Made by a program: the position numbers and the translations under genes
Assembly (NCBI GenBank): GCA_040081265.1
Contig: JBEBGV010000001.1
Location: 200,559 to 264,558 of the forward strand
Direction of reading: 5' to 3'
Source: Vicinamibacterales bacterium
GTDB taxonomy: Bacteria; Acidobacteriota; Vicinamibacteria; Vicinamibacterales; UBA2999
Length of the DNA: 64,000 bases
Part shown: in pieces, positions 19,435-23,955 of the stretch
Numbering within the stretch: the stretch's first letter is position 1
Layout of the letters: each line of letters opens with the position of its first letter
The notes under the pieces: generated by a model
The model's input: only the letters and a program-made list of their open reading frames with translations
The model's database searches: none
What the model was told of the DNA's origin: nothing

Positions 19435-19923
19435 ATGCTTGTGCCGGCACTCCTCGGCGGCCTGTTTGTGGGGGTGCTTTCCGCGCTCCCGTTCGTCAGC
19501 GTCGCCAACTGCTGCTGCATCTGGATCTTCACGGGCGGTCTGTTGTCAGCGTGGCTGCTGCAGCAGAATGAGCAGCAGCCGATAGGCGCAGGCCGCGGCG
19601 CGTTCGCCGGGTTCTCGGCTGGAGCGATCGGCGCCTTCGTCTGGCTCATCGTGACGGTGGCGCTCGATCCCATCGTCGCGCCATTCCAACAGCAGATGCT
19701 GGCGAGCCTCGCACCCAATGCGAGCGACCTGCCCCCTGAAGTGCAGTCGGCGTTCGAGTCGCTGTCGGAGCCCGGGTCTGCCGCCGTTCGGTTTGCGGTT
19801 GGCTTTGTTGCGCAGGGATTCACCGGCGCCGTCTTTTCGACGCTCGGCGGCCTCGTCGGCAGCAACATCTTCCGCCCCCCGAACGCGCCAGTCACTCCAC
19901 CGCCACTGCCGCCGGTTTCGTGA
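19435..19923 (+). CDS. Small polytopic membrane protein (hypothetical)
   Basis: 162 aa, 27 nt after ino1. About four hydrophobic helices, a VANCCCIW motif and a Pro-rich tail. Confidence 0.45.
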   Translation: MLVPALLGGLFVGVLSALPFVSVANCCCIWIFTGGLLSAWLLQQNEQQPIGAGRGAFAGFSAGAIGAFVWLIVTVALDPIVAPFQQQMLASLAPNASDLPPEVQSAFESLSEPGSAAVRFAVGFVAQGFTGAVFSTLGGLVGSNIFRPPNAPVTPPPLPPVS

Positions 19924-19999
19924 ACGCTGCTGGCATCCGCGCAGCGTTCGCCGTTGCACCGTTGGGATCCGATTCGTCTGCCCGTGCACTCCGGCACCG

Positions 20000-21298
20000 A
20001 TGAAGAAGCCGCTGTCTGACCGTCGCCCGTGGCTGGCGGTGGCGCGGGCGTATGGTCGAGCATTCTGGACCCGCAACCATCTGCCGCCGGGCGATCTCGT
20101 TGACATCGACGAACAGGAACGCCGACGGCGAACGATGCTCCTCGACCGCGCCGCGCGCTACGGTCCTGTGTTCAAAGGGCTGATGGAGCGCCGGCTGACG
20201 GTCTGCGTGGTCGGTCACGAGCGGGGTCGGCGGTTACTCAAGGACCACGCAGCGGATCTTCGCCCGGTGACGATTCAGCTCGAGTCGTTGTTTCCCAACG
20301 GCTTCATGCGTGGGATGCAGGGCGAGGTCCACCGTGACTATCGCAGAGCCCTGGTACACGGGATCGGTGCGCTTGATTTCGATGTCCTGACGCCACGAAT
20401 CGAGGGGTGCGCCGACGCGGCGCTGGCGGCCTATGCGGACGCTCCGGCACCAGCCTCGCCTCAGGCCTGGGCGGGCACGCTGGCCCAGATCGCCGCCAGT
20501 GCACTGATCACGATCTTCTTCGGACCTGACCCCGCCCATCCAGCGCACGCACGCCTCCTTGCCGCCTACCATCGGCTCGGACCGCATGGTGTCGTGTGGA
20601 CCATCTCAACGCGCCAGGTCGAGGCGTATCAGGCGCTGTGCGCAGAACTCGCTGCCCTTGACGTTGACGCCGGTGGTTTGCTGGGCCACCTGCGGGCACA
20701 GGGCAACGTGGATGACACGCTGCTCGGCAACCTGGTGTACATGGTGGAACTGGGCCGCTATGACTTGCGTGGTCTGCTGCGCTGGATCTCGCGTTATGCC
20801 GCAGACCATCCCGCCTGGCTCGAGCGTATCGCGATGGAGGCCGCAGGCCATGCTGGTGCGGTCAGCGGGAAGTCCGTCGCAGAAGCGTTCGTACTCGAGA
20901 CGCTGCGCATGGACCAGAGCGAACGGTTGATGCGTGACGTTCGGCGCGAGTTCGTCTTCGACGGGTGGCTGGTTCCCCGGGGTTCGTTGGTGCGGGTGTG
21001 CATGTGGGAAGCACACAAAGAGCCACAGTCCTTTCGGCAGCCGTTCGTGTTCGACCCGGCGCGATTTCTTGGTGACGGCCTTGCGACAGACCGATTTTCG
21101 CCATTCGGCCTCGATCATCACCACTGCCCGCTGGCCGGCCCGTCGGTTGAAGTCGCGGTCGCCTTCCTGCGCGCGCTGGCGCGCAATTACGTTGTCGACG
21201 GTCGCAATTTCGAACCGGCCGTGCGCGGACCCTATCACTGGGAGCCATCCACGAAGTTCGAAGTCACCTTGAAGCGCAACGGCGGGTCGGCTCATTGA
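20000..21298 (+). CDS. Cytochrome P450 (divergent)
   Basis: ORF 19718..21298 trimmed to MKKPLSD (ATG 20000). ExxR (ETLR), FDPARF, and Cys-ligand loop FSPFGLDHHHCPLAG. Confidence 0.8.
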   Translation: MKKPLSDRRPWLAVARAYGRAFWTRNHLPPGDLVDIDEQERRRRTMLLDRAARYGPVFKGLMERRLTVCVVGHERGRRLLKDHAADLRPVTIQLESLFPNGFMRGMQGEVHRDYRRALVHGIGALDFDVLTPRIEGCADAALAAYADAPAPASPQAWAGTLAQIAASALITIFFGPDPAHPAHARLLAAYHRLGPHGVVWTISTRQVEAYQALCAELAALDVDAGGLLGHLRAQGNVDDTLLGNLVYMVELGRYDLRGLLRWISRYAADHPAWLERIAMEAAGHAGAVSGKSVAEAFVLETLRMDQSERLMRDVRREFVFDGWLVPRGSLVRVCMWEAHKEPQSFRQPFVFDPARFLGDGLATDRFSPFGLDHHHCPLAGPSVEVAVAFLRALARNYVVDGRNFEPAVRGPYHWEPSTKFEVTLKRNGGSAH

Positions 21299-23955
21299 AC
21301 GAACGTCCGGACCACATCGTCGCCTGCTTTGCGGAACGAGTCGCAGAGGCGCCTGGGGCCGTGGCGGTCGTGGACGAGGACGGTGCCACCTCGTACGCCG
21401 CACTCGCCGCGCGCGCCGACGCCGTGGCTCGACACCTGCTCTCGGAAGGGCTCGTAGCCGGACAGCCGGTGGGCGTCTGGATGCGCCGCCGCGCCGAGCT
21501 GGTGGCCGTCCTGCTGGGCGTGATGAAGGCCGGGGGCGCTTATGTGCCCTGCGATCCCGAGGATCCGCCCGACCGCGTGCGCCGCATGCTCGACTCATGC
21601 GGCAGCGCGCTCGTCGTCGGCGATCCAGCGCTGCTGGAGGCATTGCAGGCGGAGTGCGTCACAGCCGCCGGTACCTCGCCGCGCGGGCTCGACCCGGACA
21701 CCATCCCCGCGCTTCCTGTCGGCGTCGCACCGGTGCTCTGTGCCGAAGGAGGCTCGCGGCTCGCCTATCTACTGTTCACGTCGGGCAGCACCGGTGATCC
21801 GAAAGCCGTCGAGGTCGAGCACCGGCAGGTGCTGGCGCTGCTGCGATCGGCGTGCGAGCTGCTGGGATTCGGTCCTCGTGACCGCTATCTGGCCGCGTCG
21901 ACTATTGCCTTCGACGCCTCGATTACCGAGTTGTTCCTGCCCCTGGTCACGGGCGCCAGCCTGTTGCTGCGTGACCGAGGCATCCTGTTGGAGCCACGAC
22001 GCCTCGCCCAGGAGGTGCGCGATTGCGGCGTGACCGTGGTGCAGACGGGACCCTCGGTGTGGTCCGTCATACTGGCCGAGGTACCCGACTTTCCGCGCGT
22101 GCGTGTCGCGATCACGCACGGCGAGGCGGTATCGCCAGAGCTGGCGCGACGCTTGTGCACATACGGAGAGGAGGTCTGGAACCTCTACGGTCCCACTGAA
22201 ACGACCGTGTGGGCGACGGGTTTCCGGCTCTCACCCGACGCCGGTGCGACGCTGTCACCGATGTCGGCGCCCATCGGACGGCCGCTGGCTCATGTGCGCG
22301 CCCACGTCGTCGATGAGCACGGCAAAGCCGTTCCAGACGGGACCGAAGGGGAGTTGTGGCTCGGCGGGCCGAGCGTCGCGCGCGGTTACCGCGACAACGA
22401 TGCACTGACGCGTGAGCGCTTCGTCGAGTTCGGCGGGGAGCGTGTGTACCGCAGCGGTGATGTCGTCGTCCGCGACGTCCACGGCGTCCTGCACTACTTC
22501 GGCCGCAACGACGACCAGATGAAGGTGCGCGGCATTCGTGTCGAGCCGAGCGAGGTCGAGGCCGCGATCCTGCGCGACTCGCGGGTGGCGCACGCAGCGG
22601 CAACCTGGTTTCCGACACCGGGCGGCACCAGGGCCATCGTGGCCGCGGTGGTGCTTCGCCCCGGCGTAACCTGTCGAGCGAAAGACCTGCACGAGAATCT
22701 GGCGACGCGCCTGCCCGCACCGATGATCCCGGCACGGTTCGTGTTCTTGACCGACCTGCCGTTGACGACCAGCGGCAAAGTAGATCGCAAGGCTATCAGG
22801 CAGCGTGCAAGCGCTTCCGGAGGAGAGGCGACGCCCGGACTGTCGAACGAAGGGACTCAGCAGCAGCCACCAAGCCGCATACTGACCGGCACCGAGCGTG
22901 TAGTGAGTGGCGTATGGCGGCGTCTGCTCGGCGTGGAATCAGTCGAGGCCGACGATCACTTCTTCACGGTCGGTGGTGATTCGCTGACCGCGGTGCAGAT
23001 GATGGTCGAGCTCGAAGGGCGGTTTGGTCTCGTTCTGCCCGTTCACCTCGCGTTTGAGGCGCCGACCCTTGAAACTCTGTCCGCGCGCATCGACGCTCAG
23101 CTCGAGCTGAGTGACGACGAAATCATCAATGACTTCGTCTATCCGCTGGTGCCTTCCGGAAGTGGTCCGCCGATGTTTTTCAGCGGCGTCGACTTGTCAC
23201 TGGCGCGTCGCGGACTCTGGACGGTGCCCTGCCCGTTGTTCGCGATCACGAACTGGGCAAAAGGCAGTGGATTCGTCCGCATGAAGTCGATCGAGGGCGT
23301 GGCGGCATCGCACCTGGCGCGCGTTCGCGGTGTCCAGCCGCATGGGCCGTATCGGTTTGGCGGTTACTCGCTCGGCGGGTTGATCGCGCTAGAGATGGCG
23401 CACCAGGTACGCGCCGCCGGTGAAGAGGTCGAGTTGCTGTTTCTGCTCGACCCGATGGCCCCGCTCGCTGTGGTCACGCCGGGCGCTGAACGCGCGCCGG
23501 CGCTCACGCGTCCCTCACTGGCGTTCCGGGTCGCCCGTCGAGTGTCGCGAGTGGCGAAGGGGCCAGGAGCTGCAGGATGGCCGCGCTGGTTTGGGTTGAT
23601 GGCACCTGTCCATCTGAGCGAGATCGTCGGGTGGTACCGTTATCTGGCGGTTCACTATTATCTGCGACACCCGAACCCGGTCTGGCGTGCACTCTTCCCA
23701 GCCAACCGCTGGCGGGCGTTCTGGGTCGCCGCACGACGGATGGTCTGGTGGTATTCGGCGCGCCCGTACGACGGTCGTGTGCTGGCGGTGTTCTGTGAGC
23801 AGGGCGAGCGTGGGCAGGTATGGGAATCCCTGCTCGGAAAGGAAGCTACGCGGCTCTCGCTGGACGCTCCCCACCTGGAGTTGTTCCAGGAACCGGCAAT
23901 CGGTCAATGGATGAAGTGGTTGTCCGAGTTCGTCACCGATCACGGCGTGCAATAG
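21295..23955 (+). CDS. Stand-alone NRPS module: adenylation, thiolation (PCP) and thioesterase domains
   Basis: TTG start overlapping the P450 TGA (TTGA). A-domain cores: MKAGGAYVPCDP, LLFTSGSTGDPKAV, FDASITE, NLYGPTETT, GELWLGGPSVARGY, YRSGDVV, GRNDDQMKVRGIRVEPSEVE, SGKVDRKAI. PCP: FFTVGGDSLTAVQM. TE: GYSLGG...LDP...APHLELF. There is no C domain. Confidence 0.9.
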   Translation: MNERPDHIVACFAERVAEAPGAVAVVDEDGATSYAALAARADAVARHLLSEGLVAGQPVGVWMRRRAELVAVLLGVMKAGGAYVPCDPEDPPDRVRRMLDSCGSALVVGDPALLEALQAECVTAAGTSPRGLDPDTIPALPVGVAPVLCAEGGSRLAYLLFTSGSTGDPKAVEVEHRQVLALLRSACELLGFGPRDRYLAASTIAFDASITELFLPLVTGASLLLRDRGILLEPRRLAQEVRDCGVTVVQTGPSVWSVILAEVPDFPRVRVAITHGEAVSPELARRLCTYGEEVWNLYGPTETTVWATGFRLSPDAGATLSPMSAPIGRPLAHVRAHVVDEHGKAVPDGTEGELWLGGPSVARGYRDNDALTRERFVEFGGERVYRSGDVVVRDVHGVLHYFGRNDDQMKVRGIRVEPSEVEAAILRDSRVAHAAATWFPTPGGTRAIVAAVVLRPGVTCRAKDLHENLATRLPAPMIPARFVFLTDLPLTTSGKVDRKAIRQRASASGGEATPGLSNEGTQQQPPSRILTGTERVVSGVWRRLLGVESVEADDHFFTVGGDSLTAVQMMVELEGRFGLVLPVHLAFEAPTLETLSARIDAQLELSDDEIINDFVYPLVPSGSGPPMFFSGVDLSLARRGLWTVPCPLFAITNWAKGSGFVRMKSIEGVAASHLARVRGVQPHGPYRFGGYSLGGLIALEMAHQVRAAGEEVELLFLLDPMAPLAVVTPGAERAPALTRPSLAFRVARRVSRVAKGPGAAGWPRWFGLMAPVHLSEIVGWYRYLAVHYYLRHPNPVWRALFPANRWRAFWVAARRMVWWYSARPYDGRVLAVFCEQGERGQVWESLLGKEATRLSLDAPHLELFQEPAIGQWMKWLSEFVTDHGVQ

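Follow-up and report, generated by a model that had tools for sequence, protein, structure and literature searches.

What would a cytochrome P450 and a one-module peptide synthetase make together, outside any larger biosynthetic cluster? The question is raised by a 64,000-nucleotide stretch of a Vicinamibacterales (Acidobacteriota) contig (JBEBGV010000001.1, positions 200,559 to 264,558; hereafter the window), in which a P450 gene immediately precedes a gene for a non-ribosomal peptide synthetase (NRPS)-like protein with adenylation, thiolation and thioesterase domains (A-T-TE). The initial annotation of this DNA proposed that the two form a functional unit that yields a free oxidised amino acid. 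Based on the conservation of the pair and on its predicted domains, the P450 and A-T-TE genes appear to constitute a self-contained, horizontally mobile biosynthetic cassette, which probably makes a small oxidised amino-acid-derived molecule. The genes and their functional parts are listed below, with the basis of each assignment.

20000..21298, + strand: cytochrome P450 gene, 432 aa (PF00067, AlphaFold2 model, homologue lengths)
20726..20764, + strand: I-helix segment GNLVYMVELGRYD, P450 residues 243-255, which stands in for the usual (A/G)Gx(D/E)T acid-alcohol motif
20897..20908, + strand: K-helix ETLR (ExxR), P450 residues 300-303 (sequence motif)
21095..21139, + strand: Cys-ligand loop FSPFGLDHHHCPLAG, P450 residues 366-380, with Cys376 at 21125-21127 (sequence motif)
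21295..21298, + strand: TTGA overlap of the P450 stop TGA (21296-21298) and the A-T-TE start TTG (21295-21297) (read directly)
21295..23955, + strand: A-T-TE NRPS-like protein, 886 aa, NCBI MEQ1756873.1 (four Pfam domains)
21328..22779, + strand: adenylation domain, code DATQIHLVWK (TIGR01733, core motifs)
22903..23091, + strand: carrier (thiolation) domain with the phosphopantetheine site Ser563 in GGDSL (22972-22986) (PF00550, E=5.6e-15)
23137..23952, + strand: type I thioesterase with Ser692 (GYSLGG), Asp719 (LLDP), His860 and an extended five-helix lid (PF00975)

The P450 lies within an open reading frame (ORF) spanning 19718-21298 (+). Its start was set at ATG 20000 by homologue alignment, which agrees with the lengths of 112 aligned P450 homologues. 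Direct reading of the sequence confirmed that the P450 TGA falls inside the TTG start of the 886-aa protein, as initially described, and this TTGA overlap would couple the translation of the two genes. The ETLR, FDPARF and Cys-loop motifs attributed to the P450 were likewise found, at residues 300-303, 351-356 and 366-380. A database protein from a Vicinamibacterales (Acidobacteriota) metagenome-assembled genome (MAG), MEQ1756873.1, is 100% identical to the window A-T-TE.

Conservation of the pair was assessed by a P450 profile scan with one genome per species, which returned 80 loci, and by clustering of the neighbouring genes at 83 loci. An A-T-TE gene was directly downstream on the same strand in ~46 of the 80 P450 loci and followed ~80% of the close P450 homologues. 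The A-T-TE family proteins, of ~890 aa, are 45-66% identical to the window protein across phyla, with named members from Verrucomicrobiota, Deltaproteobacteria, Gemmatimonadales, Halioglobus and Actinomycetota. Three pairs of different origin were inspected: those of the ENA metagenome contig L001, of Horticoccus (Verrucomicrobiota) and of a deltaproteobacterial MAG. In each, the last 4 nt of the P450 gene overlap the A-T-TE gene that follows it, and the flanks of the three have nothing in common. An NTGA overlap was present in 22 of the 42 scored loci (~38 of them true adjacent pairs), and in most of the scored loci without it a candidate start lay between -10 and +21 nt from the P450 stop.

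The two genes also appear to have travelled together. Identities of the P450 and A-T-TE proteins to the window pair were correlated (r=0.83, 36 loci), and at least 22 P450 and A-T-TE database matches sit on contigs of equal size. The cassette was found in at least 8 phyla, the groups represented being Acidobacteriota, Verrucomicrobiota, the alpha-, beta- and gamma-proteobacteria, Gemmatimonadota, Actinomycetota and others. Since the window pair clusters with pairs from Burkholderiaceae, Lysobacterales and Gemmatimonadaceae (60-66% identity), transfer between phyla as a unit is indicated. All-against-all clustering of the ORFs gave only three recurrent families over the 83 loci: the P450, the A-T-TE protein and a xanthine dehydrogenase (XDH)-family enzyme. 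The proposal of a functional unit is thereby strengthened: the genes are juxtaposed, co-inherited across phyla and co-evolving, and NRPS-P450 fusions exist elsewhere. The suggested synteny in related genomes extends across phyla, with unrelated flanks. Chance adjacency and a pseudogene were ruled out by the conservation, the co-evolution and the intact catalytic residues.

The absence of a condensation (C) domain and of any second NRPS or polyketide synthase (PKS) gene from the 64 kb was upheld by tblastn, Pfam and inspection of translations by eye. With a C-A-T protein or the A-T-TE protein as tblastn query, the window gave matches only to the A-T-TE gene itself and Acs. Pfam, applied to 30 ORFs of the window (28 other genes and two reading frames without a hit), likewise showed no NRPS or PKS beyond A-T-TE, and none was apparent in the other translations read by eye. 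By the same means the rest of the window was found to hold only housekeeping and envelope genes, among them GlnRS, PolA, PcnB, ino1, Acs, ABC ATPases, a methylmalonyl-CoA mutase-family protein, glycosyltransferases and pur genes. With flanks that differ in every genome examined, the cassette is as self-contained as first suggested.

All parts initially described for the 886-aa protein, namely the adenylation motifs, the GGDSL carrier and the GYSLGG/His thioesterase, were located. The corresponding Pfam matches were AMP-binding (residues 12-365), AMP-binding_C (420-495), PP-binding (537-599) and Thioesterase (648-739). The amino-acid adenylation model TIGR01733 scored 368.8 bits against a cutoff of 317.4, and core motifs A3-A8 and A10 were present. 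The specificity code was extracted by alignment to GrsA, whose sequence was checked by its return of the canonical DAWTIAAICK. From adjacent modules at other loci the method also returned a Val code and the textbook code of Thr, DFWNIGMVHK, and it was therefore taken as validated. The code read DATQIHLVWK in the window protein and DIAQITLVWK in most of the family, and D235, W331 and K517 were invariant in 114 A-T-TE family sequences. Retention of the Asp that contacts the alpha-amino group had been taken to suggest an amino-acid substrate, a view reinforced by the invariance of Asp235 together with Lys517. The domain is thus predicted to act on an alpha-amino acid and not on an aryl or fatty acid; aryl, fatty and alpha-keto acid substrates were ruled out by the invariant Asp235 and the small pocket.

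The highest-scoring PDB sequence matches of A-T-TE, by a small margin over other A domains, include LgrA module 2, DhbF module 1 and AB3403, whose A domains activate glycine. The match to AB3403 (PDB 4zxh; E 2.9e-81) covers residues 10-729. The published codes nearest to that of the window protein are a glycine code, DILQLGMIWK, from Gly A domains with an integrated monooxygenase (MOX) domain, and a cysteine code, DLYNLSLIWK (PMC12283262). Shared with both are L322, I/V330 and W331, which form the floor of a shallow pocket, and positions 239 (Ala/Thr) and 301 (Thr/His) of the A-T-TE family codes are unlike either. The pocket is polar at 301 (Thr/His) and carries Gln at 278. From these features a small, possibly polar alpha-amino acid is predicted, and no more than that. 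In the full-text literature searched, no characterised member and no publication of the family's specificity codes was found.

Downstream of the A domain, the GGDSL carrier motif and the columns of the Ser692-Asp719-His860 triad are conserved across the A-T-TE family. The AlphaFold2 (AF2) model of the thioesterase (predicted local distance difference test, pLDDT, 90.2) shows an alpha/beta-hydrolase with a five-helix lid. Its best Foldseek matches were the bifunctional thioesterase 7crn, the NocB thioesterase, the Pks13 thioesterase, AB3403 and EntF, with template modelling (TM) scores of 0.55-0.62. Of these closest solved relatives, 7crn is an epimerising and cyclising enzyme; the fold similarities do not discriminate among hydrolysis, cyclisation and transfer. 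The spacing from Ser692 to His860 is 168 residues; nucleophile-to-His spacings in the SrfA-C, EntF and Fen thioesterases are roughly 120-135 residues. Of the long Trp/Arg-rich insertion noted initially, the large, extended five-helix lid is real, and the Trp/Arg richness is only partly conserved.

The P450 is more divergent. PF00067 covers only residues 294-376, the C-terminal quarter (E=1e-15). The AF2 model built with 48 homologues (pLDDT 87.6, predicted TM score 0.89) matched CYP2D6, CYP120A1, CYP11A1 and CYP17 in a Foldseek search of the PDB, with probability 1.0 and TM scores of 0.65-0.72, so that a P450-superfamily fold is predicted. Among the 48 homologues, E300 and L302 of the K-helix stretch ETLRMDQSER are invariant and R303 is conserved at >=90%; a PERF-like motif, FDPARF, occupies residues 351-356. 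In the Cys loop, P368, F369, G370, L371, D372, H374, C376 and P377 are invariant (family consensus PFGLDxHxCP(F/L)), and the canonical Gly sites Cys-4 and Cys+2 hold Asp and Leu/Phe throughout the family. The I-helix is as strongly conserved, with G243, N244, M248, E250, R253 and D255 invariant and Y247, V249, G252 and Y254 at >=90%, and its consensus GNL(I/V)YMVExGRYD is invariant or nearly so. The MVELGRYD segment and the missing Gly of CPL, listed initially as oddities, are therefore both present but are family-wide features, not local mutations.

In a gapless HMMER alignment to CYP17, Y254-D255 fall at the acid-alcohol positions, whereas hhalign to P450cam places D255-L256 there; the I-helix register is thus ambiguous by one residue. 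In neither register of the family motif LGRYDL does the alcohol position hold Thr or Ser, and the acid-alcohol pair is lacking. The (D/E)-T pair is typical of the P450 superfamily without strictly defining it. Because of the missing Thr/Ser, canonical proton-assisted activation of O2 is considered unlikely. No ferredoxin or reductase gene was linked to the P450 in any locus. A natural peroxygenase was also considered, in which Asp255 would stand in for the Thr much as Glu does in engineered Thr-to-Glu P450 peroxygenases (PMC9541349); the idea is weakened by the hhalign register, in which Asp255 is the acid and Leu256 takes the Thr position.

The P450 family is small, with phmmer against 1.84 billion representatives returning 1734 hits at E<=1e-3 and 314 at E<=1e-30. 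The best PDB sequence and profile matches were CYP120A1, CYP90B1, CYP11A1, CYP2A6 and CYP51, and the best fold match was CYP2D6. The kinship with carrier-dependent P450s implied by the initial annotation was not borne out: OxyD and P450sky, whose structures are in the PDB, were absent from the 61 phmmer PDB hits (E<=0.01), from the best 60 of 178 profile hits and from the top 50 fold hits, a comparison that covered these two proteins and left out NovI and NikQ. With carrier-dependent P450s of solved structure the P450 thus appears to share no more than membership of the superfamily, and for this reason a carrier-binding surface cannot be inferred by homology. CypX ranked about 58th in the profile search (E=1.7e-9), which is a generic P450 level, and NCBIfam matches (ApyO and a cyclodipeptide synthase (CDPS)-associated P450) were far under their cutoffs and uninformative. 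R104, H111, E250, R253, D255, Q306-R309 and H413 are invariant and Y412/W414 conserved at >=90%. By P450 topology, these residues are assigned to the substrate-recognition regions. These conserved polar and aromatic residues suggest a small polar substrate.

Some distant relatives of the P450 bear additional domains. P0289 (731 aa), P0307 (715 aa) and P0348 (619 aa), at 36-38% identity, carry an N-terminal domain of ~295 aa with weak glycosyltransferase-type Pfam matches (Caps_synth, Gb3_synth, Gly_transf_sug DXD). Another group, of 500-526 aa, has an N-terminal extension of ~80 aa.

Physical fusion of the P450 to an NRPS module was found on two separate contigs. P0253 (1722 aa; L084:10001-15169) and P0266 (1687 aa; L085:4892-9955) are single C-A-T-TE-P450 polypeptides whose P450 domains are 40-43% identical to the window P450; P0398 (1704 aa) is near-identical and falls in the same cluster as P0266. 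For the two P450-containing proteins of 1700 aa, a fusion of XDH with P450 was rejected in favour of this C-A-T-TE-P450 architecture. In L085 the fusion gene is preceded by three SnoaL-like genes. The A codes of the fusions are hydrophobic (DVFFVGGVFK and DVIFMGAVWK), and their thioesterase is short, with Cys (GxCxG) in place of the nucleophilic Ser. Since the fusion codes are hydrophobic, the P450 family seems to serve NRPS modules with different substrates, which in turn suggests that it either acts on the backbone or close to it, or docks on carrier domains in general. The natural fusions lend the only indirect support to the putative turnover of an aminoacyl-S-carrier by the P450.

Two-module variants were seen in two verrucomicrobial MAGs. 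L024:6396-13115 encodes A-T-TE-C-A(Val code DAFWLGGTFK)-T-TE in one reading frame, and L021:3978-8348 has the same A-T-TE-C-A-T-TE domain order, continuity of its frame not having been checked. Because the order recurs in L021, an assembly artefact is unlikely. The first, internal thioesterase has an intact triad in both. This architecture fits a scheme of loading, tailoring and handing on better than one of dimerisation and release.

Taken together, the following sequence of events is proposed, with a probability of roughly 0.45. The A domain would adenylate a small alpha-amino acid in its glycine-/cysteine-like pocket, and Ser563 of the carrier would take up the residue as a thioester. The co-translated P450, as the dedicated partner of the synthetase, would oxidise the tethered residue. 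The Ser-Asp-His thioesterase would then release the product or, where a downstream module is present (L024), hand it on. An attack on nitrogen or on C-alpha/C-beta would be as likely as classical beta-hydroxylation, given how small the pocket is. The free beta-hydroxy amino acid envisaged initially is therefore retained only in part: an oxidised amino acid is favoured, but beta-hydroxylation is unproven with a glycine-/cysteine-like code, and it becomes one of several possible products since it is impossible on glycine. Oxidation on the carrier with release by the thioesterase is the best supported reading because of the conserved pairing, the NRPS-P450 fusions and the internal thioesterase of L024/L021, and the Cys376 loop, ExxR, Asp235, Lys517, GGDSL and the thioesterase triad are all intact. 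We infer that the P450 acts on a carrier-bound and not a free substrate, as we do its chemistry, its product and its source of electrons or oxidant.

Several observations weigh against this scheme. The glycine-like code makes classical beta-hydroxylation doubtful, and no solved carrier-dependent P450 was among the PDB sequence, profile or fold matches. About 12 loci of the main P450 clade (at least ~38% identity) with enough downstream sequence have no adjacent NRPS. Neither a redox partner nor a phosphopantetheinyl transferase lies nearby, nor does anything that would consume the product, and the literature searched holds no experimental data on any family member.

Some of the unpaired P450s adjoin transporters (an SNF symporter, TonB-dependent receptors, EamA, an amino-acid-binding protein). 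In L025:6294-11218 a main-clade P450 without an NRPS has an IS110-family transposase upstream and a helix-turn-helix (transposase-like) ORF downstream, and this cassette may have been disrupted by insertion sequences. In a Casimicrobiaceae MAG (L006:9362-13532), the gene after the P450 shows similarity to T and TE only, with no A domain detected, and a C-A(Thr code DFWNIGMVHK)-T gene is convergent to it.

The XDH-family enzyme, a Mo/FeS/FAD protein, was the only recurrent third neighbour and lies beside the P450 in 13 of the 83 loci. These loci belong to Verrucomicrobiota, Gemmatimonadota and Gammaproteobacteria, and among them are the pairs most closely related to that of the window (L001, L005). 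The XDH genes are immediately upstream on the same strand in L019-L024, L029, L037 and L039, divergent in L001 and L005, and convergent in L036 and L044; in L021, L024, L029 and L037 the end of the XDH gene overlaps the P450 start. The following XDH-linked loci were delimited or noted.

L019:3379-9317
L022:3352-9290
L039:1210-7268
L024:1186-13115
L037:792-5896
L001:3120-8004
L005:1290-6184
L036 and L044

In L024, xdhAB, the P450 and the NRPS gene form one operon. Operons of xdhC-xdhAB-P450 without an NRPS gene also exist, and since several of the unpaired main-clade P450s lie there, the P450 can evidently be encoded without a neighbouring carrier protein. The XdhB-type domain of L019 scored 962 bits against an equivalog cutoff of 849.5. 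In a neighbour-joining tree the XDH-linked P450s are nested among the NRPS-linked ones, and they are accordingly regarded as one family. Some organism labels in these public records look wrong: the P450s of L019, L022 and L029 (titled Akkermansia muciniphila; ~60% G+C in L019 and L022) group with Opitutaceae/Verrucomicrobia, and that of L038 (titled Klebsiella pneumoniae) groups with Actinomycetota.

Enzymes of the XDH class hydroxylate N-heteroaromatics. A possible role for the XDH would be that of an electron donor or peroxide source for the P450, or of a hydroxylase of an N-heterocyclic product. An unconventional supply of oxidant is allowed by the translational coupling of xdhB to the P450 in several phyla, by the lack of a linked ferredoxin or reductase and by the missing O2-activating Thr. 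Tentatively, and with rather low likelihood, the family could therefore be a new kind of oxidase docked to an NRPS, its electrons or oxidant supplied unconventionally, possibly by a dedicated XDH-type redox partner or peroxide source. Together with A-T-TE it would make a very widespread small metabolite from a glycine-/cysteine-like amino acid. Candidate products would be an amino acid oxidised at N or C-alpha, or a chelator or signal of the hydroxylated pyrazine or hydroxamate type.

The same XDH linkage bears on the chief alternative, possible but doubtful, in which dimerisation precedes tailoring. Here the thioesterase would keep an aminoacyl group on Ser692 while the carrier is reloaded, then form and cyclise a homodipeptide; the resulting diketopiperazine or pyrazinone would be oxidised as a free heterocycle by the P450 and, in some genomes, hydroxylated further by the XDH-type molybdenum hydroxylase. 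The cassette would then be an NRPS-like counterpart of the YvmC/CypX and Rv2275/CYP121 cassettes or of aspergillic-acid-type pathways. The two-gene cassette is self-contained, and nothing in it would consume a free modified amino acid; this agrees with such a route, as do the recurrence of the XDH partner in several phyla, often coupled to the P450, and the P450 genes without an adjacent carrier protein. The many conserved polar and aromatic residues assigned to substrate recognition are also compatible, and the thioesterase is as similar to oligomerising or cyclising enzymes (EntF, 7crn) as to hydrolytic ones. Several P450s with coupling or dehydrogenation chemistry lack the Thr of the O2-activating pair, as does the present family. 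However, there is no sequence signature of a dimerising thioesterase, the P450 has no specific similarity to CYP121 or CYP134 (CypX), and the fusions suggest action on the assembly line. The internal thioesterase of L024/L021 is hard to square with dimerisation and release.

That internal thioesterase, with its intact triad ahead of C-A-T-TE, would suit an enzyme that is mainly an aminoacyl transferase, passing the tailored residue not to water but to another carrier or condensation module encoded elsewhere or to a common cellular nucleophile. CmaE and SyrC act as such shuttles, and the Pks13 thioesterase, itself an acyltransferase and one of the best fold matches, transfers to trehalose. The unusually large lid and the C-A(Thr)-T gene convergent with the cassette in L006 could be read in the same way. 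We nevertheless consider this improbable: in the window and most loci no acceptor protein is near, only the P450, A-T-TE and XDH recur, and with ino1 not a conserved neighbour, nothing points to inositol as the acceptor. Least probable of all is a role in nitrogen or purine salvage or catabolism, with the P450 acting on a free polar metabolite linked to XDH, such as urate or a ureide-pathway amino acid, and A-T-TE activating the resulting or a related small amino acid as a thioester to be converted further. Bona fide xdhC-xdhAB-P450 operons, the above-cutoff XdhB-type domain of L019, the nesting of XDH-linked P450s among NRPS-linked ones and the transporters beside some unpaired P450s speak for such a role. 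But no other purine-catabolic gene recurs in the 83 loci, the window has no XDH gene, and ATP-dependent tethering to a carrier is, to our knowledge, without precedent in catabolism.

Two neighbouring genes of the pair in the window are of note.

19435-19923, + strand: predicted membrane protein, 162 aa, with a weak DUF5518 hit, between ino1 and the P450
23977-25941, + strand: acs, which begins just 22 nt past the A-T-TE stop

The pair had been placed between ino1 and acs; these genes do flank it, but the 162-aa membrane ORF, which stops 77 nt upstream of the P450 start, separates ino1 from the P450. The membrane ORF, P450, A-T-TE and acs may be co-transcribed in this genome, and a scan for promoters and terminators over 19.3-26.8 kb gave nothing over shuffled background. 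Neither ino1 nor acs recurs beside the pair in the 83 loci, so the location is without significance. The two genes and the membrane ORF were likewise dismissed as pathway members, since none recurs near the pair. Non-recurrent genes were also seen after the pair elsewhere, namely a cis-3-hydroxy-L-proline dehydratase in L001:10935-12038 (equivalog score 636, cutoff 500) and a TauD-family dioxygenase in L003:10797-11648, whose best weak match is the isonitrile enzyme ScoE.

That the cassette is kept intact across many phyla implies that its product confers a benefit which is general and can be transferred. Few if any orphan biosynthetic systems to express and solve would be smaller than these 4 kb and two proteins, and cultured carriers exist in Horticoccus sp. 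23ND18S-11 and Paraglaciecola sp. MB-3u-78. With its conserved non-canonical I-helix and Cys loop, the P450 family may offer new chemistry and a new source of oxidant; if XDH does supply electrons or peroxide, the two would represent a redox partnership of a new class for P450s. With the natural C-A-T-TE-P450 fusions, a system is already at hand in which P450 docking on an assembly line can be studied.

The nearest functional parallels are NovH/NovI, NikP1/NikQ/NikP2, BpsD/OxyD/Bhp and P450sky, which oxidise aminoacyl-S-carrier substrates. Common to these systems and the present cassette are stand-alone A-T loading, an adjacent dedicated P450, release by a hydrolytic alpha/beta-hydrolase and an alpha-amino-acid substrate, for which Asp235 and Lys517 are kept here. 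In contrast, loading, carrier and release are here fused in one protein, the pocket is glycine-/cysteine-like and not Tyr/His-like, and the cassette lies outside any larger cluster and spans at least 8 phyla. The P450 also differs, being of an unrelated, deeply divergent family without the I-helix Thr, with the proviso that NovI and NikQ were not compared. Cassettes of a CDPS and a P450 make pulcherriminic acid (YvmC/CypX) and mycocyclosin (Rv2275/CYP121). They too are minimal, widely transferred two-gene units whose P450 has a non-canonical I-helix. However, they are tRNA-dependent, whereas an ATP-dependent NRPS-like A-T-TE replaces the CDPS here, and without a specific sequence relation of the P450 to CYP121/CYP134 any relationship could be one of working alike.

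The A-T-TE architecture without a condensation domain is shared with the non-reducing NRPS-like enzymes TdiA, atromentin synthetase, RalA and EchA (PMC9047271). Enzymes of the TdiA/RalA type condense two aromatic alpha-keto acids; the present family differs in its invariant Asp235 (114 sequences), in its small pocket closed by L322, V330 and W331, and in its constant P450 partner. Glycine-extension/oxidative cleavage modules with MOX similarly combine a glycine-type pocket, an oxygenase and a terminal thioesterase, but there the oxygenase domain is integrated in a multimodular line and acts on peptidyl-glycine (PMC12283262). Here the P450 is separate, condensation domain and upstream chain are absent, and code positions 239 and 301 are unlike canonical glycine codes. 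AB3403 of Acinetobacter baumannii resembles the window protein as a single module with glycine-type activation and a fold match to the thioesterase; it differs as a stand-alone C-A-T-TE with a condensation domain and no P450 partner, and in architecture the fusions P0253 and P0266 are nearer to it than the window protein is. Against this background, what appears to be new is carrier-linked tailoring by an unrelated P450 family in partnership with a fused A-T-TE protein.

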